In this document: in pieces, positions 2,693-47,093 of the stretch
Layout of the letters: each line of letters opens with the position of its first letter
How positions within the stretch are numbered: the stretch's first letter is position 1
Notes under the pieces: generated by a model
Database searches by the model: none
Seen by the model: the letters and a program-made list of their open reading frames with translations, nothing else
Told to the model about the DNA's origin: nothing
DNA from: an uncultured Roseovarius sp.
GTDB taxonomy: Bacteria > Pseudomonadota > Alphaproteobacteria > Rhodobacterales > Rhodobacteraceae
Length of the DNA stretch: 64,000 bases
Assembly (NCBI GenBank): GCA_964389425.1
Contig: CAYMEC010000003.1
Coordinates: 1,065 to 65,064, forward strand
Direction: 5' to 3'
Program-made: the position numbers and the translations under genes

Positions 2693-3244
2693 TCAGGCGC
2701 CATGGCGGGCCGCGACCCCGCGCATCGCCTCTTCCAGATCATGGCGAAACGTCTCCGCCATACTGCGAAAGGCAAGTATCAGAAATCCTGTCTCGGAGAG
2801 GCGGGTGATTGAGACGGCCATATGTTGCAATTCCGTCCGCGCCGTATGCCCCCGTTTGAAACTTTCGATGCGCAGGTCCAAGGGTGTGAGCCGCGCCAGA
2901 ACGGCGGTCGCATCCGCACCATCAAGCCGCACAGATACCCACGCATCTGTCTGATCACTGAGCGCTGCGTGCTGTCCCAGCTTCCTATCCGGCAGAGGGC
3001 CTGCCAAAAGGGCCATTCGGTGGCCAAACCAAATGGCACGCGCGCCTTCTTTGCCATTGGCCCGCCCGGCACCCGGCAGCGCCATACCATGCGCCGCCTT
3101 CAACACTTTTGACAGCGCCGCATCCTTACCCTTGAAGGGCGCAAGGCTTGTTAAAATGCCCAGATCGACCTCGCTCAATCGAACCTTGCCGATCTCAACC
3201 GACGCTATGCCATCCAACGGGCTCCGTGCCTTTAGCTCAACCAC
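2693..3244 (-). CDS. soxG: Sarcosine oxidase-type gamma subunit
   Basis: Last gene of soxBDAG; DQTDAW and PLDLR...ARTELQH SoxG-like motifs; GTG at 3244 overlaps the soxA stop. Confidence 0.88.
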   Translation of the reverse strand: MVELKARSPLDGIASVEIGKVRLSEVDLGILTSLAPFKGKDAALSKVLKAAHGMALPGAGRANGKEGARAIWFGHRMALLAGPLPDRKLGQHAALSDQTDAWVSVRLDGADATAVLARLTPLDLRIESFKRGHTARTELQHMAVSITRLSETGFLILAFRSMAETFRHDLEEAMRGVAARHGA

Positions 3245-6167
3245 GAGTACGCTCTCCTTCCGGGTCAAACTGCACAGGGTCTTGGACCACACAGAGCGTG
3301 CGCGACGATTTCATGTGATCGACGACGCGCACCGTTTCCCCGATCCTCGCGCGACCACCTTTAAGAAACCCCAGACCGATCACATGCCCAAAGGTCGGAG
3401 AATAAGCGACAGACGTCACATAGCCCTGATCATTCACCCGCGTGATCTCATCGCCTTGCGTGAAAATATGTGCGCCTGACACGATTTCCTTCACGGGCCC
3501 CACTGGTTTCAATCCGACCAGTTGTTCGCGGTCCTCCCCCACCAGCCCCGGACGCGCGGCCATCGCTTTGCCGATGCAGTCTTTTTTCGGGCTGACCATC
3601 CGTTCCATCCTGATATCGAAGGCGGTGACACGACCGTGGATTTCGGAATGAGTGATGAAACCTTTCTCGACACGCATCACGTCGAGCGCCTCCATGCCGT
3701 AGGCGCAACCTCCCATCGCCTCGGCCCGACCAACCAACGCATCGAAAAGCGCGGCGCCATATCGTGCAGGCACGGCAATCTCATAGGCATGCTCACCCGA
3801 AAACGAAATCCGGAAGAGCCGTGCGGTAACGCCGCCGATGGTCACGTCGCCACACCCCATGAACGGGAAGCAGTCGTCATCAATGGGCATATCCAACAGA
3901 TCATTCAGCAGGTCGCGCGAAGTGGGGCCGGCCACGGCAAACTGCGCCCATTGCTCGGTCACCGACACAAACCGAACATCCAAACCCGGACGGAGGCATT
4001 GATGCACGTAGTCCAAATGCCCCATCACTTGCCCCGCCGCGGCGGTGGTTGTAGTCATCAGATAATGCGTCTCACCCAGCCGCGCAGTGGTGCCATCATC
4101 CATGACATGCCCGTCCTCGCGCAGCATCAGACCATATCGCACGCGCCCAACCTTCAGCGTCGAAAACATGTTGGTGTAGACGAAATCAAGAAATTCTCCC
4201 GCGTCCGGACCCTGGATATCGATCTTTCCAAGGGTAGAGACATCGCAAATCCCAACGGCTTCCCGCACTGTCTGCACTTCACGGTCGCAAGCCTGACGCC
4301 AAGTCCGCTCTCCCGCGCGCGGGAAATAGCTGGGCCGATACCACAATCCCGCCTCGATCATTGGCGCGCCTCGCGCTTTGGTCGCAACATGGGAGGTGAG
4401 CTTGCGTTCGGGCGCAAACCCTTTGCCCTGCCCGCCAGCGCCCATGGCTGCGATCGCGACCGGCACGTAAGGTGGGCGGAACGTGGTCGTGCCGGTCTCC
4501 GGAATGCCCCGTCCCGTCGCATCCGACAGCACTGCCAGCGCCTGCACGTTCGAGCTTTTCCCCTGATCGGTGGCCATGCCTTGGGTCGTGTAGCGCTTCA
4601 TATGTTCGACCGAGCGGAAATTCTCGGCCGCAGCTTGCTTCACATCCTTGACCGTCACGTCATTCTGGAAATCGAGCCACGCGCGTCCTTTCCCTGGAAC
4701 CATCCACAGCGGTGTGATGTCGTACGTACTGTCTGATGCACGCGGCACCTCCATCTTTGGCGCTTTCAACCCAAGATCAGCAAGCACTTCACTGGCCACA
4801 TCCACCCCGCTTTGCAGGCACGGCCCTGTTTCCATGACACCTGACGCAGAGCCTGCAACGACCAATCCCGGGACAGAACCGGGCGTTGGAACGAAACTCG
4901 CGATATGCGCGTCCCATTTCGGACGTCCGTTCATATGGCAGGTCAGATGTACCGACGGGTTCCAACCTCCGGACACGGCAAGGCATTCCGCCTTTATCTG
5001 CTCTCGGCCCCCAGATGTTTCGACGGTCACTTCTTCCAGCCCCTTGCGACCAGAGGAATTCACAACCTGCGCGCCCGCATAGAATGGAGCATCCAGATCA
5101 CATGTCGCCTCAGCGCGGGCATCGATAAGCGCGCTCACATGCACGCCAGCCTCTATCAGATCGGCAGCAGTGCGATGGGCGTCAGAGTTGTTGCCGAACA
5201 CCGCCACAGATCGCCCAGGGGAAACACACCAACGGTTAAGATAGGCGCGCACCGCGCCCGCCGTCATGATCCCTGGGCGATCGTTATTGGCAAATGCTAT
5301 GGGGCGCTCCAAAGCGCCCGCCGCCAACACCGCGCGTTTGGTCACAATACGCCAGAAACACTCTTTCGGGGCACCGGAACGCGCGGCCACCTCAGGTTCC
5401 GAACGTTCCAAAGCGCCAAAGGTGCCGCCATCGTAGGCACCGGTCACGGTGCAGCGGGTCATGATCCGGACATTGTCCATCGCGCTGAGGTCCGCGATCA
5501 CTTCTGCCGCCCATTTGCGCCCCGGCAGCCCGTCGACTTCAATGGTTTCTGCATTGAGCCGCCCGCCGGGAACCCTGTCTTCTTCCGCGACAATCACATC
5601 CGCTCCGGCCCGCGCTGCGGTGAGCGCGGTCATCAAACCCGCAGGCCCAGCACCGATCACCAAAAGATCGCAATGAGCCCACGCCTTTTCATAGCGATCG
5701 TTGTCTGCCTCCAGATAAAGCGCGCCCAGCCCAGCGGCCCGGCGAATGATTGGCTCATACACCCGCTCCCAAAAATTTTTCGGCCACATGAAGGTCTTGT
5801 AATAAAATCCCGCGCCCAAAAACGGTGCGGCCAGATCATTAATGGCCATCACATCGAACCCGAGCGACGGCCATGCGTTCTGGCTAAAGGCTTCCAACCC
5901 GCGGCTCAACTCGACCATGGTCGCGCGCTGATTGGGCTCTTGGCCACGACCCTTCCCAATCGTCACAAGCGCATTTGGCTCCTCGCTCCCCGCGCTCAGG
6001 ATGCCGCGCGGGCGATGATACTTGAAGGAGCGGCCCACAAATCGGATGTCATTGGCCAAAAGAGCCGAGGCCAGCGTATCCCCTTCAAACCCTCGATAAG
6101 TTACGCCATCAAAACGAAACGACACTGGTTTGCCACGATCAATCAGACCTTCGCCGTCGAGTCTCAT
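3237..6167 (-). CDS. soxA: Sarcosine oxidase-type alpha subunit
   Basis: 976 aa; SFKYHRPRG N-terminal motif, IGAGPAG dinucleotide fold, C-terminal GcvT-like folate domain. Confidence 0.94.
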   Translation of the reverse strand: MRLDGEGLIDRGKPVSFRFDGVTYRGFEGDTLASALLANDIRFVGRSFKYHRPRGILSAGSEEPNALVTIGKGRGQEPNQRATMVELSRGLEAFSQNAWPSLGFDVMAINDLAAPFLGAGFYYKTFMWPKNFWERVYEPIIRRAAGLGALYLEADNDRYEKAWAHCDLLVIGAGPAGLMTALTAARAGADVIVAEEDRVPGGRLNAETIEVDGLPGRKWAAEVIADLSAMDNVRIMTRCTVTGAYDGGTFGALERSEPEVAARSGAPKECFWRIVTKRAVLAAGALERPIAFANNDRPGIMTAGAVRAYLNRWCVSPGRSVAVFGNNSDAHRTAADLIEAGVHVSALIDARAEATCDLDAPFYAGAQVVNSSGRKGLEEVTVETSGGREQIKAECLAVSGGWNPSVHLTCHMNGRPKWDAHIASFVPTPGSVPGLVVAGSASGVMETGPCLQSGVDVASEVLADLGLKAPKMEVPRASDSTYDITPLWMVPGKGRAWLDFQNDVTVKDVKQAAAENFRSVEHMKRYTTQGMATDQGKSSNVQALAVLSDATGRGIPETGTTTFRPPYVPVAIAAMGAGGQGKGFAPERKLTSHVATKARGAPMIEAGLWYRPSYFPRAGERTWRQACDREVQTVREAVGICDVSTLGKIDIQGPDAGEFLDFVYTNMFSTLKVGRVRYGLMLREDGHVMDDGTTARLGETHYLMTTTTAAAGQVMGHLDYVHQCLRPGLDVRFVSVTEQWAQFAVAGPTSRDLLNDLLDMPIDDDCFPFMGCGDVTIGGVTARLFRISFSGEHAYEIAVPARYGAALFDALVGRAEAMGGCAYGMEALDVMRVEKGFITHSEIHGRVTAFDIRMERMVSPKKDCIGKAMAARPGLVGEDREQLVGLKPVGPVKEIVSGAHIFTQGDEITRVNDQGYVTSVAYSPTFGHVIGLGFLKGGRARIGETVRVVDHMKSSRTLCVVQDPVQFDPEGERTRG

Positions 6168-28482: not shown

Positions 28483-29535
28483 ATGTCATCGACAGCAAAA
28501 TCAGCCGAGCCAAAGCGGATCGCCTGCATCCTGCTGCCGCGTTTCAACATGATGGGTATGGTCAGTTTGCTGGAGCCAGTTCGCATTGCCAACTACCTCT
28601 CCGAGGCGCCGCTTTACCAGCATACGTTCCACGCATCCAAGGCCGGTTCAGTTCCCGCGAGCAATGGCATGGAAATCACTTGCGATGGCCTGCCAGAGGC
28701 ACTGACACGAGATGACATCGTGTTCGTGGCGGGCAGTTGGGGGGCGGAAACCTACGATGATCCTGCGCTCTTGGCTTGGCTCAGACGGCAGGCACGGCTT
28801 GGTATCCGACTCTGCGCCCTGGAGATGGCCAGTTATGTCTTTGCCCATGCGGGATTGCTGGCGGGGCGGCAGGCGACGGCCCATTGGTCCTATCTTGCGG
28901 GGTTTCAGGAGAAATTTCCCGACATTCTGGCCGCCGAGCAGCTTTTCACCTTAGATGGCGGCATCATGACCTGCGCAGGGCTGACCGCAGCGAGTGACTT
29001 GATCTTGCATCTCATTGGGGAGGACCACGGTGCGCCACTGGTGGGGGAAATATCCGATATCATCATGCATCACCCGGTGCGCCCCGCGCAAACGCCACAA
29101 CGCAAGACCATGGGCCGCGGGGTGGAAACGCTGCCCGAAAGCGTGCAGACGGCGATTGATCTGATTGAGCGCAATATCACGGAACCGCTGCGCGTCCCGG
29201 ATATCGCCCGCGCGGTGGGTATTTCGCAACGCCAGTTGGAACGACAGTTCAACCAGACCATCGGTTGCTCGGTTGTGCAGTTCGGAATGCTGCTCAGGCT
29301 GCAACACGCGCGGGTTCTGCTGATTTCCACGGATCTCAGCGTACGGGAGATCTCAGCCGCGTCAGGGTTCAATTCGCTGTCGCATTTTGCCTATGCGTTC
29401 CGAAAATGCTTTGACCGGCGGCCCAGTGAATACCGGCACGCCTGGCCGGATGGCGAGGACGCACCGAGTTGGCCGGGGACATTGGCAAAGTATCTCGATA
29501 CGCTTCAGGTCAACCAGCGGGTGCGGGGAGACTAA
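28483..29535 (+). CDS. GlxA-family AraC regulator (DJ-1/PfpI sensor + HTH; CdhR/GbdR-like)
   Basis: LEPVRIAN, GLLAGRQATAHW, TCAG, C-terminal SQRQLERQF...SGFNSLSHFAYAFR. Confidence 0.92.
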   Translation: MSSTAKSAEPKRIACILLPRFNMMGMVSLLEPVRIANYLSEAPLYQHTFHASKAGSVPASNGMEITCDGLPEALTRDDIVFVAGSWGAETYDDPALLAWLRRQARLGIRLCALEMASYVFAHAGLLAGRQATAHWSYLAGFQEKFPDILAAEQLFTLDGGIMTCAGLTAASDLILHLIGEDHGAPLVGEISDIIMHHPVRPAQTPQRKTMGRGVETLPESVQTAIDLIERNITEPLRVPDIARAVGISQRQLERQFNQTIGCSVVQFGMLLRLQHARVLLISTDLSVREISAASGFNSLSHFAYAFRKCFDRRPSEYRHAWPDGEDAPSWPGTLAKYLDTLQVNQRVRGD

Positions 29536-29652
29536 AGTGTCACGACGGCGCAGGTTCAAGGCCATTGGGGCACCCCGCCTTTGTCCACTGCCCGATGGAC
29601 GATTGCTTGCAACCGCTGAGAGGTGGGTCCCACCCAAGCCATGGCAAAGCCG

Positions 29653-30597
29653 CTATGTCGTATCCCACACGGCCTTCAGAACGGCCACGATTTTTCGATC
29701 CCGTTCGGCGGCCATATCCTCAAAATGCCGCTCACCCGCCATGACATTGCAGCCATCAACCATACGGTCGCGCAGTTCCTGCGTCAGTTCGGGCGCCTCC
29801 AGCCGCGTCCAGGGCCATTTGAGCGCGGGGCCGAATTGGTCAAGGTTCGTGGCCATGCCCCCCTCTCCACAGGCCACATGAAACGCCATGCACTGGCCCT
29901 GTACCACCATGCGGGGCGCCGGGCCGTTTCTGAGCGCGATGTCGATATCCTCGGGCGTCGCCTCCCCATTGGCGACCATGTGGAGCGCCTCGCGCCAAAG
30001 CGCCTCTTGCAGGCGGGTCCCGACGAAACCGGGGACTTCCTTTTTCATCACCAGCGGGGCCTTGCCCGCGATCTCATAAAAGCGCGCAGCCCAGTCTACG
30101 GCCTCCGGCGCGGTTGTCTTCCCGCCCACGATTTCCACCAGCGGCAACAGGTATGGCGGGTTGAACGGGTGCCCGATCACGCAGCGTTCGGGTGTGGGAC
30201 ACGTGGCTTGTATCTCCGTCATGGTGAGACCGGAGGTAGAGGACCCGATGATAATCTCGGGGGGCAGGATCGCGCCCATCCGGGCGTAGAGGTCCTGTTT
30301 GATCTCCACCCGCTCCGGCCCGCTTTCCTGCACGAACTCCGCGTCCTCCAACGCCTCTTCCAGATCGCTGGTCACGGTCAGTCGGTCAAGCGACGCATCC
30401 GGCGCAAGACCCAATTCCGTCAAGCTGCGCCAACCCGTTTCGATCACCGCCATCAGGGCATCGTGTTCCGCCGCATCGTGGATATAGGCCGTCACATCAT
30501 AGCCCCGCGCCAGAAAATGCGCCGTCCAACCGCCCCCGATAGGGCCCGCGCCAAGGCTGGCTACGCGGGTGATCGAGTGTGGATCGCAATACATCAT
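29653..30597 (-). CDS. 3-hydroxyacyl-CoA/carnitine 3-dehydrogenase family (CdhA/LcdH-like), no fused thioesterase
   Basis: LGAGPIG Rossmann motif, QESGPE, SSTSG, GHPFNPPYLLPLVE, LWREALH, QFGPAL..PWT; start at 30597 overlaps the caiD stop. Confidence 0.87.
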   Translation of the reverse strand: MMYCDPHSITRVASLGAGPIGGGWTAHFLARGYDVTAYIHDAAEHDALMAVIETGWRSLTELGLAPDASLDRLTVTSDLEEALEDAEFVQESGPERVEIKQDLYARMGAILPPEIIIGSSTSGLTMTEIQATCPTPERCVIGHPFNPPYLLPLVEIVGGKTTAPEAVDWAARFYEIAGKAPLVMKKEVPGFVGTRLQEALWREALHMVANGEATPEDIDIALRNGPAPRMVVQGQCMAFHVACGEGGMATNLDQFGPALKWPWTRLEAPELTQELRDRMVDGCNVMAGERHFEDMAAERDRKIVAVLKAVWDTT

Positions 30598-31397
30598 TCG
30601 CCCTTGAAGTTGGGTTCGCGCTTTTCGACGAAAGCCGCCACACCCTCGGCCGCGTCTTCGGATTTCAGCATCTTGCGGTAGATTGGCATCGGATCGGTGC
30701 GCATCTTTTGGAAGGCCTCCTCCAATGGATGGCACTCGATCTCGCGTTGCACCTCTTTCACCGATTGCATGGCCAGCGGCGCGGACCACGCGATAGACGC
30801 GGCCCATTCGCGCGCGGCGTCTATGAGGTCTTCTTTCGGAACGATCTTGTTGACCAGCCCGTAATGGGCGGCCTCACTCGCGGTCATGCGACGGCCCAGC
30901 AGGAACATCTCCATCGCGATGTTATGGGGGATGCGGCGAGGAAGGCGTTGCAGCGCGCCTGCATCGGGTACAATCCCAAGCGGCATTTCCGGCAGACCAA
31001 ATTCCACATGCTCTGACGCGATCAACAAATCACAAGCCATCGCCATCTCGAACCCACCGCCAATGGCCAATCCATTGATCGCGGCAATGACTGGTTTGTT
31101 GAGCGCCCAATTCTCCGTCAGACCGGTGAACCCACCAAACCCGTAGTCATCGCTTTCCCACCAGTTATCGAGCTGCATCTCGCCCGAATTAAGCGCCTTT
31201 AGATCCCAGCCGGCCGAGAAAATCTTTTCCCCGCCGCCGGTCAGGATGGCGCAGCGCAGGTCTTTGTCTTCATGCAATTCCTGAAATGCCGCCGCCAGCG
31301 CCCGCGAGGTGGGCACGTCGATTGCGTTCACCTTACCCCGTTCCAGCGTGACCTCCAGTACATGGCCGTCACGGACCACCTTCACACCGTCAGACAT
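30594..31397 (-). CDS. caiD: Carnitinyl-CoA dehydratase / crotonobetainyl-CoA hydratase
   Basis: NAID..TS, FSAGWDLKA, GF.GLTE, GGGFE, LPE..LGIVPD; closely matches remembered E. coli CaiD. Confidence 0.85.
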   Translation of the reverse strand: MSDGVKVVRDGHVLEVTLERGKVNAIDVPTSRALAAAFQELHEDKDLRCAILTGGGEKIFSAGWDLKALNSGEMQLDNWWESDDYGFGGFTGLTENWALNKPVIAAINGLAIGGGFEMAMACDLLIASEHVEFGLPEMPLGIVPDAGALQRLPRRIPHNIAMEMFLLGRRMTASEAAHYGLVNKIVPKEDLIDAAREWAASIAWSAPLAMQSVKEVQREIECHPLEEAFQKMRTDPMPIYRKMLKSEDAAEGVAAFVEKREPNFKGE

Positions 31398-31406
31398 GGT
31401 TTTCTC

Positions 31407-32441
31407 CTATTGAAAGGCGGGCATCACTTCGTCGCAGAAAAGCCGCATCGAGCGTTTCTGCGCGTCCAGATCAAGGCCCATTGAGGCATAGTAGATGAAC
31501 TCGTCTACCCCCAGCGCCTCATAGCGTTTGAGTTTTTCGATCACCCGATCAGGGGAGCCAAAGAGCAGGTTTTCTTCAAGCATGTCCGGGTCGTATTGCT
31601 CGCGGCCTGCCAGCTCTTCCAGCGGGATTTGCGCGGGGAAGCCGTTCGTCACGCCGCCTGCATTGCGGAACAGGTTTTCAAACTGGCCGAGCACCAGCCG
31701 AATGGCATCGATGGCCTTCCGCCGGTCGCCTTCATTGTCATAGACAGCGGCGTGACGCATCATCGCAAACGTCGGACGAAATCCGTTCCCGGCCTTCTCC
31801 ACCGCCTCATCCAGTTGTTTCTTGTAAAGCTCTGCCTCCGAAAAGGGGCGCGTCAGGGGCCAGCTCATCACGTGGCATTTTTCGCGCAGCGCGTAATCAT
31901 AGGTGATCGGCGACCGGGCCGCGACCCAGACGGGGATGTCTTGCTGAAGCGGTTTGGGGCAGGAGGTAGAACTGGGAAACTGCCAGAACTGTCCGTCATG
32001 CGCGTAATCGCCCTGCCAAAGTGCGCGCACGGCAGGCAGCATTTCCTGCATGTATTGCCATGCATCCGATTGCTTGAGTCCCGGGCGCATACGGTCAAAT
32101 TCACGTTGGTAAGCACCCGACCCGATGCCAAACTCCAGCCGCCCATCGCTGAGCAGATCCAGCATCGCGGCCTCACCGGCTAGGTTGATCGGGTGCCAAT
32201 AGGCCGCCGTCGCCACGGCTGTCCCCAGACGGATCGTATCGGTGTGTTCCGCCCACCATGTGAGCAACTGAAATGGATTGGGGGCAATCGTCATTTCCAG
32301 CGCGTGGTGTTCTGCGGCCCAGACGATGTTGAACCCGCCCTCTTCGGCCATCTGCACCATCTCCAGCGTGTGATCGCGGACGGCGCGCATGTCGGTCGCG
32401 TCATTCATGCGCTCCAGATTCACGGCAAGTTGGAACTTCAT
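31407..32441 (-). CDS. LLM-class flavin monooxygenase, TgnB-like
   Basis: W..EHH..E.TIAPNPF, WHPINLAGEAAM, GDYAHDG.FW.FP..TS.PKP.Q, YEALG.DE, VMPAF; these match my recollection of the trigonelline oxygenase TgnB family. Confidence 0.82.
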   Translation of the reverse strand: MKFQLAVNLERMNDATDMRAVRDHTLEMVQMAEEGGFNIVWAAEHHALEMTIAPNPFQLLTWWAEHTDTIRLGTAVATAAYWHPINLAGEAAMLDLLSDGRLEFGIGSGAYQREFDRMRPGLKQSDAWQYMQEMLPAVRALWQGDYAHDGQFWQFPSSTSCPKPLQQDIPVWVAARSPITYDYALREKCHVMSWPLTRPFSEAELYKKQLDEAVEKAGNGFRPTFAMMRHAAVYDNEGDRRKAIDAIRLVLGQFENLFRNAGGVTNGFPAQIPLEELAGREQYDPDMLEENLLFGSPDRVIEKLKRYEALGVDEFIYYASMGLDLDAQKRSMRLFCDEVMPAFQ

Positions 32442-32468
32442 CGCGTTCTCCTTTATCGGCCCCGCCCC

Positions 32469-33950
32469 TCAGCGCATCACGAACGGATTGGCCATCGGCT
32501 CGTCCGAGGTGTTCATCCAGACCGTCTTGGGGCGCGTGTAATCATACATCGCCTGGAACCCGCTTTCGCGGCCATAGCCCGATCCCTTGATCCCGCCGAA
32601 CTCGGCGATGGGGGAGACAACGCGGTACGTGTTCACCCAAACGATCCCGGCGCGCACCGCGCTCGACATACGCAAGCTCCGCGCGCTGTCACGGGTAAAG
32701 ATGCCCGCGGCCAGCCCGTGTTCGGTGTCATTTGCCAGTGCCAACGCCTCATCTTCGGTCTTGAACCGTTGCACGCACAAGACAGGGCCGAAAAGCTCGG
32801 TATCCACGATGCGCAAATCCTGCCGGGGGCAGGACAGGATCGTGGGTTCAAAAAACAGCCCCTCCATCCCCTCGGGGCGTTTGCCACCGGTCAGGATGTC
32901 CGCGCCTTCTTCCTGCGCAAAGGCCAATTCGCGTTCGATCATATCCCGCTGGCCGGTGGTACAAAGCGGTCCCATCTGCGTTTCTTCCAGCAGCGGGTCC
33001 CCGATCTTGATCTCCTTGGCCTGCGCCACCATCCGCGCAAGAAACTCGTCGGCGATATCGTCATGCAGATAAAGCCGCGAACCGGCCACACAGCTTTGCC
33101 CGGTAGCGCCGAAGATGCCAGCAATGGAGGCATTGACCGCGCTTTCGATATTGGCGTCCTCGAAGACGATGAAGGGGGATTTGCCGCCCAGCTCGAGGCT
33201 GACTTCGGCAAAATTGTTCTTGGAGTTTTCCAGCACATGGCGGGCCGCGCCCGGCCCCCCGGTAAAGGAGATGCGCGACACCAGCTTGTGCCCCGTCAAC
33301 GCCCGGCCACAAGGGTCGCCATGGCCTGTGACGATGTTCACCACGCCGGGCGGGATGCCCGCCTCTTCAATCAGTTGGGCAAACTCCAGCATCGCGGCTG
33401 AGGCATGTTCAGAGGCTTTGATGACAATCGTGTTGCCCGCCGCAAGCGCGGGGCCAACCTTCACGGCCACCAAGAAAAGCTGGCTGTTCCATGGCACGAT
33501 GGCGGCCACAACGCCCAGCGGTTCACGCTTGGTAAAGACAAACAGATCAGGTTTGTCGATGGGCAGGGTTTCACCGCTGACTTTATCGGCACAGCCTGCG
33601 TAGAAATGGAAAAACTCGGCGATGTATTTGGCCTGCCAACGGGTTTCCTTGAGCATCTTGCCGGTATCGATCGTTTCCGTACGGCCCAGATCCTCTGACC
33701 GGTCCGCCAGCAGATCGCCCAGACGGCGCAGATGTTTGCCGCGCTCTGACGGGGTCATCCTGGACCATGGGCCAGTCGTGAACGCCTCGTGGGCGGCACG
33801 AACAGCGCGGTCGACATCGGCCTCGGTCGCCTCGGGCACCCGTGACCAGACCTGACCGGTGGCAGGATTGACGCTGTCGAAAGTTGCGCCGTCCGAGGCA
33901 TCCACCCATTCGCCATTGATCAGCATCTGATAGGTTTGGATTTTGTTCAT
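32469..33950 (-). CDS. Aldehyde dehydrogenase, TgnC-like
   Basis: LELGGKSP (Glu) and GQSCVAG (Cys); LPIDK, VPWNSQLFL.AVKVGPALAAG and FTGGP are shared with remembered TgnC. Confidence 0.88.
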   Translation of the reverse strand: MNKIQTYQMLINGEWVDASDGATFDSVNPATGQVWSRVPEATEADVDRAVRAAHEAFTTGPWSRMTPSERGKHLRRLGDLLADRSEDLGRTETIDTGKMLKETRWQAKYIAEFFHFYAGCADKVSGETLPIDKPDLFVFTKREPLGVVAAIVPWNSQLFLVAVKVGPALAAGNTIVIKASEHASAAMLEFAQLIEEAGIPPGVVNIVTGHGDPCGRALTGHKLVSRISFTGGPGAARHVLENSKNNFAEVSLELGGKSPFIVFEDANIESAVNASIAGIFGATGQSCVAGSRLYLHDDIADEFLARMVAQAKEIKIGDPLLEETQMGPLCTTGQRDMIERELAFAQEEGADILTGGKRPEGMEGLFFEPTILSCPRQDLRIVDTELFGPVLCVQRFKTEDEALALANDTEHGLAAGIFTRDSARSLRMSSAVRAGIVWVNTYRVVSPIAEFGGIKGSGYGRESGFQAMYDYTRPKTVWMNTSDEPMANPFVMR

Positions 33951-37517: not shown

Positions 37518-38612
37518 TCAGCTTTGGGCCATGAACTGCGACAACGCCTCAATCGTCGCGTCCATTTCCGCATCGAGCCCGACCGTAAACCGCAGCTTGT
37601 CCGCGAAATCATCCAGCGCAAACTTGCGGGCGACGATGCCTTTGGTTTGCAGGTACGCATCCGCCTTTTCGGCGTGGTCCGGGCTGGGAAAGGCGACCAG
37701 CACGAAGTTTGTCTGACTGGGATAAACCGTCAGCCCCATGCCCGTCAGTGCGGTGGTCAATCTGTCAATCCACTTCGCATTATGGGCCAACACGTGGGCG
37801 CAGTGCCCCCCATCCTCGACCGCCGCAATCCCCGCCGCCTGCGCAGCTGAATTGACCGGAAAGGATGGCCCCACGCGCTCCATCAGGTCGATCACAGGCG
37901 CCGGTCCATAGCACCAACCTAACCGCAACCCGGCCAGCGCGTAGAGTTTGGAAAAGGACCGCGTCATCACCACGTTGTCGAATTCATGCACCAGCGCGGT
38001 GGGATCTTCATAATCCTCCGCGTCCGCGTACTCGTGATAGGCCCCGTCAATGATCAGCAGCACATCGTCAGGCAACGCGGCATGCAACCGCCGCACCTCT
38101 GATCCCGGCAGGTAAGTACCCGACGGATTGTCCGGATTGGCGATGATCACGACCTTCGTGCGCGGTATCACGGCCGCCAGGATCTTATCCACGCTGTGGC
38201 GGAAATCATCATCATCAGCGGCCACCGGAACGGATCCCGCGCGCATCGCGTAGATCGGGAATTGCATGTAGGCGTTCTTGGAATGCACCACCTGATCCCC
38301 CGGCCCCGAATAGAGGCTGATGAGGCGCAGCAAAATCTCATCCGACCCCGGCCCAAAGGCCATGCGCCCCGGATCGAGATCAAAGCGTTTGGCCAATGCC
38401 TCCGGCAGCGCGCCGGTCCCCAGCTCGGGATACCTGTGAGCCGTCTCCATCGCGACCTGCGCAGCCCGGATCGCTCGGGGGCTGGGACCAATCGCCGTTT
38501 CATTGGACGACAGTTTGGAGATCGCATCAAACCCCGGCAGGGACGAGATGCCGACCATGTAATACCCCACATCAGCGAGGCTTTTCTTGCTGGGGGGAAG
38601 CGTCAAAGGCAT
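37518..38612 (-). CDS. PLP-dependent class I/II aminotransferase, HisC-like
   Basis: KLSSNE, GSDEIL, NPDNPSG, DGAYHEY, RSFSKLYALAGLRLG (PLP lysine). Confidence 0.9.
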   Translation of the reverse strand: MPLTLPPSKKSLADVGYYMVGISSLPGFDAISKLSSNETAIGPSPRAIRAAQVAMETAHRYPELGTGALPEALAKRFDLDPGRMAFGPGSDEILLRLISLYSGPGDQVVHSKNAYMQFPIYAMRAGSVPVAADDDDFRHSVDKILAAVIPRTKVVIIANPDNPSGTYLPGSEVRRLHAALPDDVLLIIDGAYHEYADAEDYEDPTALVHEFDNVVMTRSFSKLYALAGLRLGWCYGPAPVIDLMERVGPSFPVNSAAQAAGIAAVEDGGHCAHVLAHNAKWIDRLTTALTGMGLTVYPSQTNFVLVAFPSPDHAEKADAYLQTKGIVARKFALDDFADKLRFTVGLDAEMDATIEALSQFMAQS

Positions 38613-38628
38613 GGCTTGGAACCTGATT

Positions 38629-38646
38629 TATCTGTGATCACAGATA
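38629..38646. promoter_or_regulatory. Putative GntR operator
   Basis: Perfect 18-bp palindrome TATCTGTGATCACAGATA in the 77-bp divergent gap. Confidence 0.75.
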
Positions 38647-38689
38647 TGCTACGCAGGTCACAAATGCAAGCAATGCCACGGAGACGGAC

Positions 38690-40312
38690 ATGACCAGTAC
38701 CCCCCTTCCCACCAAGGGCAAAACCTGCGGTGAAGCCTTGATGCATCTGTTGGAAGGCTACGGCGTGGATACGGTCTTTGGCATGCCTGGCGAACACACC
38801 TTGGAGCTTTATCGCGGGATTGAAACAAGCAATGTGCGCCACGTCCTTGTGCGGCACGAAGGCGGCGCGGGCTTCATGGCCGATGGCTATGCCCGGTCGT
38901 CTGGCCGTCCGGGGGTGTGCACGCTGATCACCGGGGCGGGGGTGACAAACGCCGCCACGCCCTTGGCGCAAGCCTACGCGGATTCCGTGCCGGTCCTTCT
39001 GATCTCCAGCGCCAATCGCAGTGAATCGCTGGGCAAAGGCTGGGGATGCCTGCATGAACTCACCGATCAGCGCGCCGTCACGGCCCCCCTCACCGCCTTC
39101 AGTCAGATGGTCACCGATCCCGAAGAGCTGCCCGAACTCATCGCGCAGGCCTTCACCGTGTTCTATTCCCGCAGGCCCCGGCCGGTGCACATCTCCATTC
39201 CCATTGACCTGCTCGATGCGCCGGTGACGCGGGACTGGCAGGTGCGCCAACCGCCCTCTCTGCCCGTTGCGCCCAGAGCCACCATCGAAGCCGCCGCGGA
39301 CATGCTGGCGAGGGCCAAGCGCCCGGTGTTGATGGTAGGGGGCGGCGCGCAGAACTGCGGAGAGTGCGTAACGCAGCTTGCCGAACATCTGGACGCCGCT
39401 GTTGTCTCTTCCAACGCGGGCAAGGGCGTGGTGCCGGAAAGCCACCCGCTCAGCCTTGGCGGCGGGATGATCACGAAGGCGGTGCGCGACTTCGTGGAAA
39501 CCTGCGATGTCATACTCTCCATCGGGTGCGAGATATCCGAGACCGACAGCTTCGAGGATTACCTGACCATTAACGCCAAACTTATCCGCGTGGATATCGA
39601 CCCGTCCAAGTTCAACGATCTCTATCCCGCCGATCTGGCCCTCCAAGGCGATGCACGGCCTTCGGTGGAGGCGATCCTGACAACCACGCAAGAGTCAGGC
39701 CCGCAACATCACGGCATGGCCGAGCAACTGACCCCAGTACGAGCGGCGCAAAATGCGGCCTTCACGAACGTGGAACAGCAACACAAACGCCTGCTCTTGA
39801 AATTGCGAGGGGTGCTGCCAGACGACGCCATCATGTTCGGCGACATCGCGCAACTGGTCTACACAGGCTCCGCCGTCATGCCCACCGATCGACCGCGCAC
39901 ATGGTTCTACCCGGCGGGGCTCGGGACGTTGGGATGTGCACTTCCCGGGGCCATCGGGGCCAAGCTGGCGCAGCCCGACCGCCCCGTCGTGGCGCTAGTG
40001 GGCGATGGCGGGCTTCTTTTCACCATTCAGGAACTGGCCACAGCGGTTGAACAGACGCTGCCGATCCCGATCATCCTGTGGAACAATGACGCTTTGGCGA
40101 TGATCCGGGACGGCATGGTCAAACGTGGCATCCCCGAGATTGGCGTCACGCCGAAAAACCCTGATTTTATCACTGTCGCGCAGGGCTTCGGGTGCCATAC
40201 GGCGCGACCTGAAAATCTCGAAGCATTCGGTCAGGCGGTCGCAACGGCCTTGACCGCAGATGCTCCAACCCTCATCGAAGTGCGTGAAAACGTAGATTGG
40301 TTGGTGGCCTGA
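38690..40312 (+). CDS. ThDP-dependent 2-oxo-acid decarboxylase, AruI (5-guanidino-2-oxopentanoate decarboxylase)-like
   Basis: TCGEAL..LLE.YGV, RHE.GAGFMADGYAR.SG.PGVC, AYADS.P.L.ISS, GDGG...WNN ThDP motif. Confidence 0.85.
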   Translation: MTSTPLPTKGKTCGEALMHLLEGYGVDTVFGMPGEHTLELYRGIETSNVRHVLVRHEGGAGFMADGYARSSGRPGVCTLITGAGVTNAATPLAQAYADSVPVLLISSANRSESLGKGWGCLHELTDQRAVTAPLTAFSQMVTDPEELPELIAQAFTVFYSRRPRPVHISIPIDLLDAPVTRDWQVRQPPSLPVAPRATIEAAADMLARAKRPVLMVGGGAQNCGECVTQLAEHLDAAVVSSNAGKGVVPESHPLSLGGGMITKAVRDFVETCDVILSIGCEISETDSFEDYLTINAKLIRVDIDPSKFNDLYPADLALQGDARPSVEAILTTTQESGPQHHGMAEQLTPVRAAQNAAFTNVEQQHKRLLLKLRGVLPDDAIMFGDIAQLVYTGSAVMPTDRPRTWFYPAGLGTLGCALPGAIGAKLAQPDRPVVALVGDGGLLFTIQELATAVEQTLPIPIILWNNDALAMIRDGMVKRGIPEIGVTPKNPDFITVAQGFGCHTARPENLEAFGQAVATALTADAPTLIEVRENVDWLVA

Positions 40313-40341
40313 AGGCCCCTGCCCCAATAAAGGAATAACAC

Positions 40342-41535
40342 GTGCCCGCCCATTTGGGATTTGACAGAACGCGACTGTCCCGCATTGGGTCTTGGATGCA
40401 GGATCATGTCGATGCCGGGCGGCTGGCGGGTTTGGCGGTGCAAGTCACGCGACGCCGCGAGGTGGCATTTTCCGAACGCGCCGGTCTTCAGGACGTGGAG
40501 AACGAGATCGCCGTCAGGCCCGATGCGCTGTGGCGGATTTATTCGATGACCAAGCCGGTCACGTCACTGGCCGCGATGATGCTTTACGAAGACGGCGCGT
40601 TTCAACTGGATCAGCCCGTGGCGGATTTTCTACCCGACTTTGCCAATCTGCGGGTCTGGAAGGGCGATGACCACGCCCTGTCCGCGACTGAAACACTGAC
40701 CCGCCCGGTCACGATCCATGACCTGCTGACCCATCAATCCGGTCTTGTCTATGACGATCCACAAGGCAACGAGCTTGAACGTGCTTTGTCCAAGGCCGGT
40801 CTGGGTTTTGATAAGGACATCCCCACATTGGCCGATGCCGTGGCCCGGCTCACGGAGTATCCTTTGGCCTTTCAACCTGGGGCGCGGTGGTTCTATGGGC
40901 TGTCCACGGATGTCCTCGGCGCCCTGATCGAAACGATCTCAGGCATGTCCCTTGGCGCGTTCTTCCAGACGCGGATTTTTGACCCTCTGGGCATGGAAGA
41001 CACCGGATTTGACGTTCCCCCTAATCAAGCCCAGCGTTTGGCGGTACTCTATCAACACGCGGATGGCGGGTTCGAAAAAGCGCCCCACCAAAACAGATGG
41101 GCCCGCCCCGTGACCTTGCAGAGCGGCGGTGCCGGGCTCGTGTCCTCAATGGCGGATTACCAACGCTTTGCCGACATGCTGTTGCAGCGCGGGGCCTATG
41201 AGGGCGGTCACATGCTGGGGCGCAAGACCTTTGACCTGATGGTGGCGAACCACATGGGCGGTGATCTGGCCAGCCGGGGTCAGGCGCATTTTTCCGAGAC
41301 CACGATGGAAGGCATCGGGTTTGGCCTTGGCATGTCCGTGATGCTGGATCCCGCCCGGGCCAAAATCATCGGCTCACCCGGAGAATTCGCCTGGGGCGGA
41401 TGGGCATCCACCGCCTTCTGGGTGGACCCGGTCGAGGACATGACCGTGATCCTGATGACCCAACTCGCCCCCTCCTCCGCACACGCATTGCGGCGTCAAC
41501 TTCGGGTGCTCAGCTATCAGGCCTTGGTCGAATAA
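40342..41535 (+). CDS. Serine hydrolase, beta-lactamase-like / family VIII esterase
   Basis: SMTK (SxxK), LLTHQSG, FQPG..W.YG.S.D, F.WGG; no signal peptide. Confidence 0.88.
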   Translation: MPAHLGFDRTRLSRIGSWMQDHVDAGRLAGLAVQVTRRREVAFSERAGLQDVENEIAVRPDALWRIYSMTKPVTSLAAMMLYEDGAFQLDQPVADFLPDFANLRVWKGDDHALSATETLTRPVTIHDLLTHQSGLVYDDPQGNELERALSKAGLGFDKDIPTLADAVARLTEYPLAFQPGARWFYGLSTDVLGALIETISGMSLGAFFQTRIFDPLGMEDTGFDVPPNQAQRLAVLYQHADGGFEKAPHQNRWARPVTLQSGGAGLVSSMADYQRFADMLLQRGAYEGGHMLGRKTFDLMVANHMGGDLASRGQAHFSETTMEGIGFGLGMSVMLDPARAKIIGSPGEFAWGGWASTAFWVDPVEDMTVILMTQLAPSSAHALRRQLRVLSYQALVE

Positions 41536-41550
41536 CGGATCCGGAAACCC

Positions 41551-42486
41551 CTAGTCGAGGGCTGGAACGTGACCGAGCCACGTTTCAAAGTCTGGAAGGC
41601 TGAAGGCGGTGCGACGTGCCGTTTCCTTGGGGCTCTTTGCGTTGAACTTGATCCGAATGCCAAGGAACACGCTTGAGGCTGTTACCGATTCCGTCAGGCC
41701 CGTTGTCGAACTCTTTTCCGAACTTTCAAAGTAGCTGACACCACCGACAACCGAGGCGCTGCCGCCCAGAAAATCCCGGTCCAGCACATGTTCGCCAAAC
41801 AGGGTGATTTCGAACAGGTCTGCCGGATCCGGACCCGCATCATCGTTATCGCTCATGCCGTCAGCGCCGGACAGTCTCACCCCGAAGCTGGAGCGGTCAT
41901 TCTTGAAGTAGTATTGCCCGACGAGGCTCAGGAAATGCGCATCATCCAGTGTTTCAAGGTTGCTGGCGCTGGAGGTCAGCCGGCCCACTTGAGCCCCGAA
42001 TGACCAGTTCTCCAAATGAACGGCCCCAGACAGGCCCGCGACACTGAAATCCGCGTTTTGGTCAGAATCAGCATTGTTGAAACTCACTTGGCCCACGCCG
42101 TAGAACGCACCAAAGTACTTGCGTTCTTCAGCGATGCCCAATTGGACGTCAGCGAAGGATCCATTCACAGGTGAGTCATTGGTGATTTGTGTCCCGAGCG
42201 TCTGACTCACGTTGTTTTCTTCATGCCTGAGACCGAATTGAAGTCTTGCATTGCTGGAGATGGGCAAAGCCAGTCGGCCATCAATGCGCGCTGCTTCGTA
42301 GCTATCGAATTCGTCTGGCAAACCAGTGGAATTGAGCGCGTCACCCCCCCGGTCCACGGCACTGAAGGAAAGCCCGACATCGACAACCGTCCCTGGCATT
42401 CCGTCAGCCCGGGCATCAACAGGAAAATTGGCGATTACCGCCGCTGCAACCAGCGCTCCACCCCTGAAGGTCATCGTCACCACCAT
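41551..42486 (-). CDS. Hypothetical exported protein, probable outer-membrane beta-barrel
   Basis: Signal-like N-terminus ending VDARA; many alternating hydrophobic/polar segments rich in G/S/F/Y. Confidence 0.6.
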   Translation of the reverse strand: MVVTMTFRGGALVAAAVIANFPVDARADGMPGTVVDVGLSFSAVDRGGDALNSTGLPDEFDSYEAARIDGRLALPISSNARLQFGLRHEENNVSQTLGTQITNDSPVNGSFADVQLGIAEERKYFGAFYGVGQVSFNNADSDQNADFSVAGLSGAVHLENWSFGAQVGRLTSSASNLETLDDAHFLSLVGQYYFKNDRSSFGVRLSGADGMSDNDDAGPDPADLFEITLFGEHVLDRDFLGGSASVVGGVSYFESSEKSSTTGLTESVTASSVFLGIRIKFNAKSPKETARRTAFSLPDFETWLGHVPALD

Positions 42487-43656: not shown

Positions 43657-43713
43657 TGTAACTAGTTTCAAGAAAATCTTGACCCGAATCACGCGCTATG
43701 TAACCAGTTACAT
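43657..43713. promoter_or_regulatory. Two LacI-type operators
   Basis: TGTAACCAGTTACA (43699-43712, near-perfect palindrome) and TGTAACTAGTTTCA (43657-43670), flanking TTGACC (43679). Confidence 0.75.
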
Positions 43714-43731: not shown

Positions 43732-46056
43732 GTGCTGCCGCAGCCTGTCATTCGGGAATTCAGCAACATGGGGTTCGAGGGATCGCGCCGCAGTTTCCCG
43801 GGCTTTGCCACCTCCAAACAATCCATCACGCGCTCCCTCTCTCCGCGACAGGCGATCCGGATTGCGCTGTCGACCGGCGACATGCTCTCGCTGCACGAAG
43901 GCGCGTCACCTCAAAATGCGGCCCTTCTGGTGTTCGACGATCGCGGTCATGTGACCCCCGAAAATCTGGGGCTTGCTGCCAACACGACATTGGGCACGGA
44001 CGCTTTCGACGCCAGGGAATTGCTGGCATGGTACGCGGGCAACGGAGGCACGCAGGTCAGTGACTTCCCGGCCACCGAAGTGACGGTGCAGGACCTTTGC
44101 GTCTTTCGCGCAACCAAACCTTGCACCATCTGGATCGCGCGCCCTTTGCACACCCACGAACTGATCTCTGGTGCCGATGCAGGACAGTTGATCGTGTCTT
44201 GCACGCCTGCTGCGCAAAACAATCCCGTCCTGCCACCGCCCTTGGGCGCCGTCCGGGATGAATTCACGGTCTCACGCGGCACTGCCCGGGCCTACGAGGT
44301 AAAGCCCGGAGAAGTCGTGCAGATCGTCGACATTGATGGGCAGCAATGCTCCGATTTCATGGCGCTGCGCGCCGACGCCCTGGAACGCGGGCTGGAACGC
44401 GCCATTGACAGCACGGCGACCCGTTCCATGGTGCGCGGCGCCTATCCCGGCCCCGGCCTTCTGGACAAATTCTTCGATCAGGACCTGCGCCCGATGATGC
44501 GGGTCGTGCAAGACACATGCGGCCGCCACGACACGTTCGGCATGGCCTGCACCGCCCGCGGGTACGAAGAACGGGGGTTTCCCGGACACGTGAACTGTTC
44601 GGACAACATTTCGAACGCGTTGGCTCCCTTTGGCGCGGCCCGCCGTCCAGCCTGGCCAGCAATCAATTTCTTCTGGAACACCTGGGTCGATCACCAATCC
44701 CACCAGTTGATGACCGAAGAAAGTCATTCCCGCCCCGGCGATTACGTGGCGCTGAGGGCCGTGGATGCGATGGTCTGTGTATCCACCGCCTGTCCCGACG
44801 ACATTGACCCCATTAATGGCTGGAACCCCACCGATGTGCATGTTCGCATCTACCACTCGGACGCGCCGATCCACCGCGCCGTGGCCTATCGCGAAAAGGA
44901 GGACGCACCCATGGCGATCAGCCAGGAAAGCGCCTTTGCGCCGGAAACCTCCAAACTGACCCAGCATTTCGCGCCCGCGCGGGATCTGTGGGCACCAGTA
45001 TCGTTCCCGTCCACGGGCACCATCGGCGAATACTGGGCCTGCCGGGAAAAGGTCACGCTTCAGGATATGTCGGGTCTGCGGAAATACGACATCATCGGAC
45101 CCGATGCGGAGGCGCTGTTGCAGCGTGTCATGACCCGCGATGTGGCGCGTCTGGCCGTGTGGCGGGGAACCTACGCGCTCATTTGTGATGAGGCCGGCGC
45201 GGTCGTGGACGATGGCACGCTCTTCCGGCTTGCGCCAAATCTCTTCCGTTGGTGCTGCGGCACGGAAGAAAGCGCACGCGTGATGGAAAAAGTCGCGGCC
45301 GCGGAAGGCTTGCAAGCCCGCATTCACGCCATGGGTCAGGCCCTGCCCAACCTCGCATTGCAAGGCCCGCTGTCTCGCGATGTGCTGCGCAAGATTGTCT
45401 TCACCCAACCCACTGTGCCTTCGCTGGATGATGTGAAGTGGTTCGGCGTTACCGTGGCGCGCGTGGGCGATCGCGAGGGCATCCCCTTCATGCTCTCCCG
45501 CTCCGGCTACACGGGTGAATTGGGATATGAACTTTTCTGTTCCACCGATGACGCGCCCGCACTTTGGGCCGCCGTGATGGAAGCGGGCGCGGAATTCGGG
45601 ATCGAACCCATGGGGTCTGCCGCGCTCGATATCCTGCGGATCGAAGCGGGGCTCGCGGCAGCCAATGCGGAATTCGCCCCGGGCGTCGACGCACATGAGG
45701 CAGGGCTGGGCTTTGCCGTCAGCCTCGGCAAGGCGGATTTTATCGGCAAGGCGGCGCTGACCCGCAACGCGGACAACCCACGCAAGGTGTTGCGCGGGCT
45801 CTGGTTTGAAGGTGATGACGTGCCGCTACCCGGCGCTCATGTGTTTGATGGCGAACGCCCTGTGGGGGTCATCACCTCCGCCACCCGATCGCCCATGTAT
45901 GAACGCACCATCGCGATGGCCCGGCTGGCCGTCGAATACGCAGATACGGGGCGGAATTTGGAAGTGGGGCAGTTGGACGGGCATATGAAACGCCTGCCCG
46001 CATCCGTCTGCGCCACGCCATTCTACGACCCCAAGAGAGAGAGGGCACGGGCGTGA
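43732..46056 (+). CDS. DUF1989 - GcvT-like aminomethyltransferase fusion protein
   Basis: Central QQCSDF, CGRHD...C...Y...HVNCSDN, ACPDDID..NGWNPT; C-terminal DMSGL.K, DDGT, RSGYTGELGYE, LRIEAG, G.ITS; GTG start after AAGGAG. Confidence 0.85.
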   Translation: MLPQPVIREFSNMGFEGSRRSFPGFATSKQSITRSLSPRQAIRIALSTGDMLSLHEGASPQNAALLVFDDRGHVTPENLGLAANTTLGTDAFDARELLAWYAGNGGTQVSDFPATEVTVQDLCVFRATKPCTIWIARPLHTHELISGADAGQLIVSCTPAAQNNPVLPPPLGAVRDEFTVSRGTARAYEVKPGEVVQIVDIDGQQCSDFMALRADALERGLERAIDSTATRSMVRGAYPGPGLLDKFFDQDLRPMMRVVQDTCGRHDTFGMACTARGYEERGFPGHVNCSDNISNALAPFGAARRPAWPAINFFWNTWVDHQSHQLMTEESHSRPGDYVALRAVDAMVCVSTACPDDIDPINGWNPTDVHVRIYHSDAPIHRAVAYREKEDAPMAISQESAFAPETSKLTQHFAPARDLWAPVSFPSTGTIGEYWACREKVTLQDMSGLRKYDIIGPDAEALLQRVMTRDVARLAVWRGTYALICDEAGAVVDDGTLFRLAPNLFRWCCGTEESARVMEKVAAAEGLQARIHAMGQALPNLALQGPLSRDVLRKIVFTQPTVPSLDDVKWFGVTVARVGDREGIPFMLSRSGYTGELGYELFCSTDDAPALWAAVMEAGAEFGIEPMGSAALDILRIEAGLAAANAEFAPGVDAHEAGLGFAVSLGKADFIGKAALTRNADNPRKVLRGLWFEGDDVPLPGAHVFDGERPVGVITSATRSPMYERTIAMARLAVEYADTGRNLEVGQLDGHMKRLPASVCATPFYDPKRERARA

Positions 46057-47093
46057 CAGACGCAGTTGTTGAGCTTGAAAACGTCTGGAAAATCTTCGGC
46101 GAACGCGCCTCCGAGGCGATGGAAGCCGTGCGCACAGAAGGCATCGGCAAGCCCGAGGTGCTGGAACGGTTCGGCGCTGTCGTCGGCGTCAAGGACGCAA
46201 GTTTCTCCGTCGCCAAGGGGGAAATCTTTTGCCTGATGGGCCTCTCTGGGTCGGGCAAATCCACTCTGGTGCGCCACATCAACCGCCTGATTGAACCCAC
46301 CGCAGGCACGATCCGCATCATGGGCGAAGACATCGGCGCCATGAAATCCGAACAGCTGCGCGCCACCCGCGCAGACAAGATCGGCATGGTGTTTCAGAAC
46401 ATGGCCCTGCTGCCGCATCGATCCGTACGCGACAACATCGGCTTTGCGCTGGAACTGCGCGGGATGGATGGTTACCACCGCGCCAAGGCCGCCGACAAAG
46501 CCTTGGAAACCGTCAGCCTGCATGGCTATGGCGACCGCCTGCCCTCGGAACTGTCCGGGGGCATGCAGCAACGGGTGGGTCTGGCGCGCGCGCTGGCGGC
46601 TGACCCTGAGATCCTGTTGATGGATGAACCCTTCTCGGCCCTCGACCCGCTGATCCGGCGCAACCTTCAGGATGAATTCCTCAGCCTCAGTGTGGATGTG
46701 AAGAAGACCACCGTCTTCATCACCCATGACCTCGATGAGGCGATCCGCATGGGCGACCGCATCGGAATCATGAAAGATGGCGAAATCGTCCAGATCGGTA
46801 CAGCCGAAGACATCGTCACCGCCCCCGCCGATGACTATGTTGCCGATTTCGTCGCGGGCATTTCCCGGCTGAAACTGGTGTCGGCCTCCAAGATCATGGT
46901 GCCACCGGATAAGCACGGGCCGATCAAGGGCAAAGGCCACCCCGTGGCACGCCCGGATGATGATCTGGACACGCTGGTGGGCCTGTCGACCGGGTCCGAT
47001 CAGCCTGTGCTGATCAAGGATGGCGACGTGCTGGTGGGCGTTGTCAGCAAGGACACCCTGCTCACCGGACTGCAAGGGGGGGCAGAGACATGA
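46053..47093 (+). CDS. proV: Glycine betaine/proline-type ABC transporter ATPase
   Basis: GLSGSGKST, LSGGMQQRVGLARAL, LMDEPFSALDPLIR, FITHDLDEA. Confidence 0.9.
   Translation: MTDAVVELENVWKIFGERASEAMEAVRTEGIGKPEVLERFGAVVGVKDASFSVAKGEIFCLMGLSGSGKSTLVRHINRLIEPTAGTIRIMGEDIGAMKSEQLRATRADKIGMVFQNMALLPHRSVRDNIGFALELRGMDGYHRAKAADKALETVSLHGYGDRLPSELSGGMQQRVGLARALAADPEILLMDEPFSALDPLIRRNLQDEFLSLSVDVKKTTVFITHDLDEAIRMGDRIGIMKDGEIVQIGTAEDIVTAPADDYVADFVAGISRLKLVSASKIMVPPDKHGPIKGKGHPVARPDDDLDTLVGLSTGSDQPVLIKDGDVLVGVVSKDTLLTGLQGGAET

Follow-up and report, generated by a model that had tools for sequence, protein, structure and literature searches.

Trimethylamine N-oxide (TMAO) and related methylated compounds are precursors of climate-active gases and, for marine bacteria, major sources of carbon, nitrogen and energy. 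In the structure of the TMAO demethylase (Tdm) from Paracoccus, obtained by cryo-electron microscopy (PDB 9Q59; eLife 2026), a Cys3 zinc site (C285, C301 and C365) holds the TMAO oxygen, D220, F327 and D367 provide contacts to TMAO, and a tunnel takes formaldehyde to a folate site comprising R480, F582, F672 and K782 (PMC13619132). In Tdm, the DUF1989 core does not act as a hydrolase or deiminase: its zinc site binds the N-oxide oxygen, and formaldehyde is released there. The GcvT domain captures formaldehyde on tetrahydrofolate, with no transfer of a methyl group. Here, we describe a gene for a 774-residue protein of this type, found in a 64,000-nucleotide stretch of DNA (the window) from an uncultured Roseovarius sp. 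(NCBI GenBank assembly GCA_964389425.1, contig CAYMEC010000003.1). It belongs, by sequence comparison, to a paralogous group that we term type 2, and it is accompanied by genes for an importer and a LacI-family regulator (Table 1).

The assignment to the Tdm family rests on matches that run through the whole chain. The NCBIfam hidden Markov model (HMM) for TMAO demethylase, NF053776, covers amino acids (aa) 25-774 with model positions 7-763 of 763 (E 0), and 9Q59 matches the protein with an E value of 2.9e-183. An earlier interpretation drawn from the letters alone (the sequence-only reading) had regarded the fusion of DUF1989 to GcvT as an orphan architecture; by homology, the three-domain chain is instead that of Tdm. 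With the described enzymes (Methylocella silvestris Msil_3603, R. pomeroyi SPO1562 and the Paracoccus sp. DMF TDM, 9Q59/9Q5A/9Q5L) it shares the three-domain layout with a variable N-terminal domain, the Cys3 zinc site, the equivalents of D220 and D367, the His, the folate-site residues and the end-to-end HMM match.

At the residue level, the zinc ligands C285, C301 and C365 of 9Q59 correspond to C273, C289 and C354 of the window protein, which are invariant in a 40-sequence alignment; the first two lie within the Pfam DUF1989 span and C354 lies just beyond it. The contacts D220 and D367 correspond to D208 and D356, the latter position being a Cys in the standard roseobacter Tdm copy. At the position of F327 the window protein has W315, by which an aromatic residue is retained; Trp is found here in the subclade of the window protein, and the other type-2 subclades have Phe. 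The folate site (R480, F582, F672 and K782) is kept as R469, F571, F661 and R769, the last with a change from Lys to Arg. C263/C279/C343 and D198 of the M. silvestris enzyme also correspond to the zinc cysteines and D208, and its residues H276 and D346 (PMC12560246) correspond to H286 and D357, both invariant in the same alignment. For the window protein, the family-level mechanism of a zinc-bound oxide, formaldehyde release and capture on folate is well supported.

Several elements of the sequence-only reading hold at the level of domains and gene layout. The N-terminal region of about 170 aa is real: in the AlphaFold model (mean predicted local distance difference test score, pLDDT, of 81), which contains a beta-rich N-terminal domain, the core and the GcvT domain, aa 31-160 form the beta-rich part with a pLDDT of about 80-90, and the alignment to NF053776 begins within this region. 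The Pfam boundaries of the DUF1989 domain fall close to the positions proposed earlier (44251-44853). A full GcvT-like domain is likewise present, as GCV_T (aa 410-662, E 1.7e-58) followed by GCV_T_C (aa 686-766, E 2.1e-16), and this part of the model superposes on T-proteins including 1YX2 (Foldseek template-modelling score 0.93) in a search of a PDB set older than 9Q59, the matches of which are domain-level only. The gene starts with GTG, six bases downstream of AAGGAG. Translational coupling to proVWX-type genes was also recognized correctly, as the tdm-like stop overlaps the ATPase start by 4 nt (46053-46056), the ATPase stop overlaps the permease start by another 4 nt (47090-47093), and the OpuAC gene follows after a short gap.

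Table 1. Positions of the genes, domains and predicted operator sites of the locus within the window
Feature	Position	Strand	Description
LacI-family repressor gene (predicted), 338 aa	42619..43635	-	Pfam LacI helix-turn-helix + Peripla_BP_1/3; divergent from operon
Operator-like site O1, ATGTAACTAGTTTCAA	43656..43671		12/14 specified bases; 21-36 nt upstream of lacI start
Predicted operator O2, ATGTAACCAGTTACAT	43698..43713		Perfect palindrome; 18 nt before start codon of tdm-like gene
Type-2 Tdm paralogue, 774 aa	43732..46056	+	N-terminal domain, zinc DUF1989 core, GcvT folate domain
DUF1989 catalytic core, aa 179-343	44266..44760	+	Pfam, E 1.6e-43
GcvT folate-binding domain and C-terminal barrel, aa 410-766	44959..46029	+	Pfam
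ABC ATPase, ProV/ChoV-like, 346 aa	46053..47093	+	ABC_tran (Pfam)
ABC permease, 602 aa	47090..48898	+	BPD_transp_1 (Pfam)
OpuAC-family periplasmic binding protein, 317 aa	48933..49886	+	Pfam; 34 nt after permease

The source genome (G000) contains a second Tdm copy on another contig, C11, which scores 1222 bits against NF053776 and 991 bits against 9Q59 across the full length, N-terminal domain included. The window protein is 46% identical to this copy over 607 aa, and its N-terminal 150-170 aa give no pairwise (BLAST) alignment with either the C11 copy or 9Q59. When one genome per genus was surveyed for 151 genera of the family, the NF053776 scores proved bimodal: 39 genomes have a copy scoring at least 1156 bits, and eight have one scoring 1025-1054 bits. 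The Tdm of Paracoccus aminophilus is 52% identical to the standard C11 copy and 42% to the window protein. A tree anchored by HMM scores, 9Q59 and plasmid-borne Tdm genes in pathway context separates a standard clade from a type-2 clade. By these comparisons, the window gene is a paralogue from a distinct type-2 group, not a standard Tdm. The group occurs in marine Alpha- and Gammaproteobacteria, among them Rhodobacterales, SAR116-type Puniceispirillaceae, Granulosicoccaceae and Aliamphritea. The nearly complete genome G076 has a type-2 gene and no standard copy, and searches of it for a flavin-containing monooxygenase-type Tmm and for TmoX found neither. A literature search found no paper describing the type-2 paralogue, its LacI control or its importer; a paralogous subgroup with importer and repressor for which no characterised member was found is all that remains of the orphan status proposed earlier.

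The C11 copy itself lies in a standard TMAO cluster (C11:44605-51444; L001, L009, L010) with, in this order, genes for TmoX, TmoV, a TmoW of 669 aa with two permease cores, a ChrR-like cupin of 125 aa and the Tdm of 790 aa. A GNAT acetyltransferase gene is found downstream, and a gene for a GcvA-like LysR regulator is divergent. Its TmoX matches the crystallised Ruegeria TmoX 4XZ6 with an E value of 1.3e-176 and about 88% identity, as counted from the alignment.

The two groups also differ in residues close in sequence to the zinc ligands. Tdm genes of the P. aminophilus chromid and of Rhizobium and Acinetobacter plasmids stand among tmm and dmmDABC. These proteins, together with the C11 copy and P0129, make up a set from trimethylamine (TMA) pathway context, all members of which have Tyr at position 277 (Phe in one), Tyr at 283 and Asn at 294 (window numbering); the assayed Paracoccus enzyme, 9Q59, agrees with them at all three positions. 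By comparison, all members of a module-linked set (the window protein, those of Paracoccus seriniphilus and Aliamphritea, P0125, P0126 and P0127) have D245, F247, G277 (Ile in one), F283, S294, A307 and I361. Counted from the zinc ligands, the changes are found 4 residues after, 3-6 before and 5 after, and in the AlphaFold model G277 and S294 are on the helices that start at C273 and C289. Genomic context and this residue signature agree with each other more sharply than the tree does.

The genomic context is a conserved module of five genes. Among 80 related loci collected from species genomes (Rhodobacterales, Puniceispirillaceae, Hyphomicrobiales, Geminicoccales, Granulosicoccaceae and others), 57 have a divergent LacI gene no more than 600 bp from the tdm-like gene, and betaine-type ABC (ATP-binding cassette) genes follow directly 3' in 54. 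The transporter genes occur in two arrangements: arrangement A has the V-W-X order of the window (23 loci; binding proteins 51-91% identical to that of the window), and arrangement B has the order X-V-W (25 loci; binding proteins just 35-41% identical). The same module is found in Aliamphritea and on a 600-kb plasmid of P. seriniphilus, and in Ruegeria arenilitoris it adjoins plasmid replication and partition genes. Clustering of all open reading frames (ORFs) of the 80 loci revealed no other widely recurrent neighbour beyond the five genes, and a wider conserved neighbourhood was dismissed, the small recurrent clusters being housekeeping genes such as leuB, M23 peptidase and thioredoxin. A sulfonate link through Xsc was set aside as well: the sulfoacetaldehyde acetyltransferase gene abuts the module in only two loci (L012:6941-8719 and L099:124-18856). 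In L099, genes for Pta, for a taurine-type ABC transporter and for two dehydrogenases resembling dimethylglycine dehydrogenase (DMGDH) adjoin the module as well, an association too rare to generalise.

Upstream of the LacI gene in the window (37518-41535) are genes for an aminotransferase, a thiamine pyrophosphate (TPP) enzyme of the 5-guanidino-2-oxopentanoate decarboxylase subfamily (648 bits against a cut-off of 500) and a beta-lactamase-fold hydrolase, none of which is a conserved neighbour of the module across the 80 loci. Between the hydrolase and LacI genes, on the minus strand (41551-42486), lies a 311-aa ORF that has no Pfam or NCBIfam match and was not found in any of the 80 related loci.

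The predicted operator of the module is a 7+7 palindrome with the consensus ATGTAAC-NN-GTTACAT. The 96-bp intergenic region between the LacI and tdm-like genes of the window holds two such sites, and the perfect palindrome O2 is the sole perfect match in the 3.7 Mb genome. Sites matching at least 12/14 positions occur upstream of the tdm-like gene in 43 of the 57 loci with a LacI gene and in just two of the 23 loci without an upstream one; one of these two has a LacI gene downstream, and the other is truncated by a contig end. In related loci the sites are often paired, about 21 bp apart, and the operator is conserved from Rhodobacterales to Granulosicoccaceae. A genome-wide operator scan for further regulon members returned no other credible site, with two hits inside ORFs, and a promoter scan of the intergenic region gave no sigma-70-like match. 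These data support a predicted dedicated LacI-family repressor, for which this operon is the only target detected in the genome. The window operon would be under a LacI-family protein, not TmaR or TmoR. On contig C2 of the genome, a divergent pair of genes (344 aa and 435 aa) encloses a related palindrome, ATGTAAGCGCTTACAT (C2:54767), which is perfect too and is probably the operator of another LacI-family regulator.

The importer resembles two described systems without being orthologous to either. Like TmoXWV, it is a betaine-family ABC importer encoded with a Tdm-type gene. The binding protein of the window has an aromatic cage of W33, W85, W151, W157, Y203 and W205, in which W55, W102, W177 and W222 of TmoX are represented by W33, W85, W157 and W205, and F220 by Y203. 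In contrast to TmoXWV, the gene order is enzyme, V, W, X; the cage has the additional invariant Trp151 and Tyr203; and the permease has one core (aa ~362-591) after a long N-terminal extension of ~330-360 aa, whereas TmoW has two fused cores. The best PDB match of the binding protein is DmpX (7YLE, E 1.2e-11), with which it shares the Trp cage and the Tyr equivalent to Y200, a residue essential to the binding of dimethylsulfoniopropionate (DMSP) by DmpX (PMC10030565). Differences from DmpX include Glu113 to Ser and Thr64 to Gln, and the identity is low. Tyr203 and Trp151 are invariant in both transporter lineages, and both lineages lack the Glu found at position 131 of TmoX. A third transporter of the TmoXVW type is encoded on contig C13 of the genome (C13:23165-27466; L104:3166-7467); the binding protein, with 33% identity to TmoX, has retained the equivalent of Glu131, the permease is a double one of 690 aa, and a gene for an iron-containing alcohol dehydrogenase comes after the transporter genes.

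As to chemistry, repression and substrate, we infer that the locus most likely forms a self-contained operon under repressor control, the products of which take up a small methylated onium oxide and split off one C1 unit. In such a scheme, the aromatic cage of the OpuAC-type binding protein would catch the methylated cationic head of the ligand, which the ABC transporter would then import. The 774-aa enzyme would act as Tdm does, with the Cys3-bound zinc of the DUF1989 core holding the oxide oxygen while the substrate rearranges and formaldehyde is released, and the fused GcvT domain would take up the formaldehyde to give methylene-tetrahydrofolate. Bound to the two palindromic operators, the divergent LacI-family protein would keep the operon repressed as long as no inducer is present.

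No single substrate is likelier than TMAO or a small amine oxide very similar to it, which we put at slightly better than an even chance. It is favoured because the reported contacts are conserved or still aromatic, the cage fits a trimethylammonium head and, to our knowledge, the Tdm enzyme family has no other abundant natural substrate. A number of observations nevertheless weigh against it. All group members tested fall under the curated equivalog cut-off of NF053776 (1100 bits): the window protein scores 1025 bits, and the other type-2 and outlying representatives 824-1048. Beside the zinc ligands, the changes from Tyr to Gly, Tyr to Phe and Asn to Ser are specific to the group. Neither the window nor the 80 related loci show tmm, tmoXWV/tmoP or dmm beside the type-2 gene. 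Standard and type-2 copies occur together in six of the eight type-2 genomes (odds ratio 10, p 0.004, uncorrected for kinship), and such retention of the standard Tdm would be unexpected if the type-2 gene were a plain duplicate. The binding protein is a remote relative of TmoX rather than its orthologue (E 3.2e-9 against 4XZ6; about 23% identity as measured for another genome's copy). In TmoX, Glu131 hydrogen-bonds the TMAO oxygen. The equivalent residue is essential to TMAO binding in SAR11 TmoX (PMC8918994), and in the window this position is taken by Ser113, in a low-identity alignment on which phmmer and MAFFT are consistent; arrangement A has Ser or Gln there, and arrangement B has Ala, Thr or Gln.

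These points leave real room for an enzyme with the same Tdm-type mechanism and a shifted specificity, a lesser but substantial possibility in which the substrate would not be TMAO but another methylated onium oxide, probably one carrying a polar or anionic tail; examples are dimethylsulfoxonium propionate (DMSOP) and the N-oxides of dimethylated amino acids or sulfonic acids. The signature residues from D245 to I361, the binding-protein pocket that looks nearer to DMSP-binding DmpX than to TmoX (Tyr203 and Trp151 present, Glu absent), the co-occurrence with a standard Tdm, and the module's own regulator and operator all speak for such a shift. Conversely, the reported TMAO contacts are conserved, Trp in place of F327 makes the pocket no larger, a shared ligand is possible for binding proteins of this family at less than 25% identity, and TMAO is the only natural amine oxide known to be abundant in seawater. 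The DMSOP version taken by itself, in which DMSOP would be converted to methylmercaptopropionate and formaldehyde, appears improbable; the reaction is mass-balanced and redox-neutral, and DMSOP demethylation and a DMSOP importer are stated open questions (PMC10686828), but the idea comes solely from chemical analogy. Demethylation of an imported non-oxide quaternary amine or betaine, by a chemistry not seen in Tdm, is quite unlikely. An aromatic cage is typical of betaine, choline and DMSP binders, and about 11 of 85 loci have DMGDH-like genes with electron transfer flavoprotein, folD and purU genes in the vicinity of the module; however, the density of DMGDH-like genes is close to chance given about 20 such copies per genome, the protein lacks a domain for a redox cofactor, and quaternary amines carry no oxygen that could be handed over.

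Least probable of all, with hardly any weight left to it, is the role assigned by the sequence-only reading, namely a CgdAB-like hydrolase or deiminase fused to a methyl-transferring GcvT domain and acting on an N-methylated guanidino or amine osmolyte. A DUF1989 domain is indeed present, and the 5-guanidino-2-oxopentanoate decarboxylase-type gene lies 3.4 kb upstream, but that gene does not travel with the module, and the full-length Tdm match includes the Tdm-specific N-terminal domain. The urea-carboxylase-associated DUF1989 proteins (UAAP1/2, CgdAB) have the DUF1989 fold and zinc cysteines in common with the window protein; they are stand-alone, paired proteins of about 200-230 aa without a GcvT domain, whereas the window protein is a single fused chain that has one and scores far under the cut-offs of the urea-amidolyase-associated (CgdAB-type) models TIGR03424 and TIGR03425 (88 and 62 bits against 285 and 206). 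Family assignment thus largely refutes the deiminase proposal. Methyl transfer to tetrahydrofolate gives way to formaldehyde capture, as known for the GcvT domain of Tdm, and nothing supports a guanidino substrate. DmdA had been named as a known enzyme that the protein might prove to be; the DmdA model NF009133 gives 134 bits against a cut-off of 410, with a match confined to the GcvT domain, and the known family is that of Tdm. What endures from that reading is the outline of a predicted folate-linked, C1-releasing enzyme, fused to a metal-binding DUF1989 domain and apparently co-transcribed with a betaine-family importer for a methylated onium compound.

Elsewhere in the window, a gene on the minus strand (3237-6167) encodes a 976-aa protein resembling the sarcosine oxidase alpha subunit, with 2Fe-2S, SO_alpha_A3 and GcvT domains. 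More than 20 ORFs of the source genome contain a GcvT domain, and methyl-group catabolism is therefore heavily represented. At 28483-33950, a gene for a GlxA-type AraC regulator (DJ-1 + HTH_18) adjoins luciferase-like monooxygenase and aldehyde dehydrogenase genes, which may constitute a further small-molecule catabolic unit.

Dimethylamine is, with formaldehyde, the product of TMAO demethylation by Tdm. Searches of the source genome (90% complete) with P. aminophilus DmmA, PDR and DUF3445 queries found no dimethylamine monooxygenase, nor did four further genomes with type-2 genes (G076, G089, G136 and G143) yield the DUF3445 subunit; the same DUF3445 query matches 19 of the 151 genomes of the family. 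By analogy with SAR11, dimethylamine may be an end product here. A general link between type-2 genes and the absence of Dmm was considered and not retained: Dmm is present in one of eight type-2 genomes and in 17 of 33 standard-only genomes, a difference that is not solid (p 0.06, uncorrected for kinship).

Surveys count tdm by BLAST or HMM thresholds. If the type-2 enzyme acts on another substrate, a widespread paralogue would be mis-counted as TMAO demethylase; should the DMSOP version be true, the module would supply the missing DMSOP demethylation route and importer. If TMAO is the substrate, the module would provide a second, independently regulated uptake route, mostly in genomes with no detected dimethylamine monooxygenase, and a TMAO route of this kind would point to the harvesting of energy or C1 units rather than to nitrogen supply. 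With one repressor, one operator, one importer and one enzyme, the module is simple enough to be easy to test and is a potential ligand-responsive switch.

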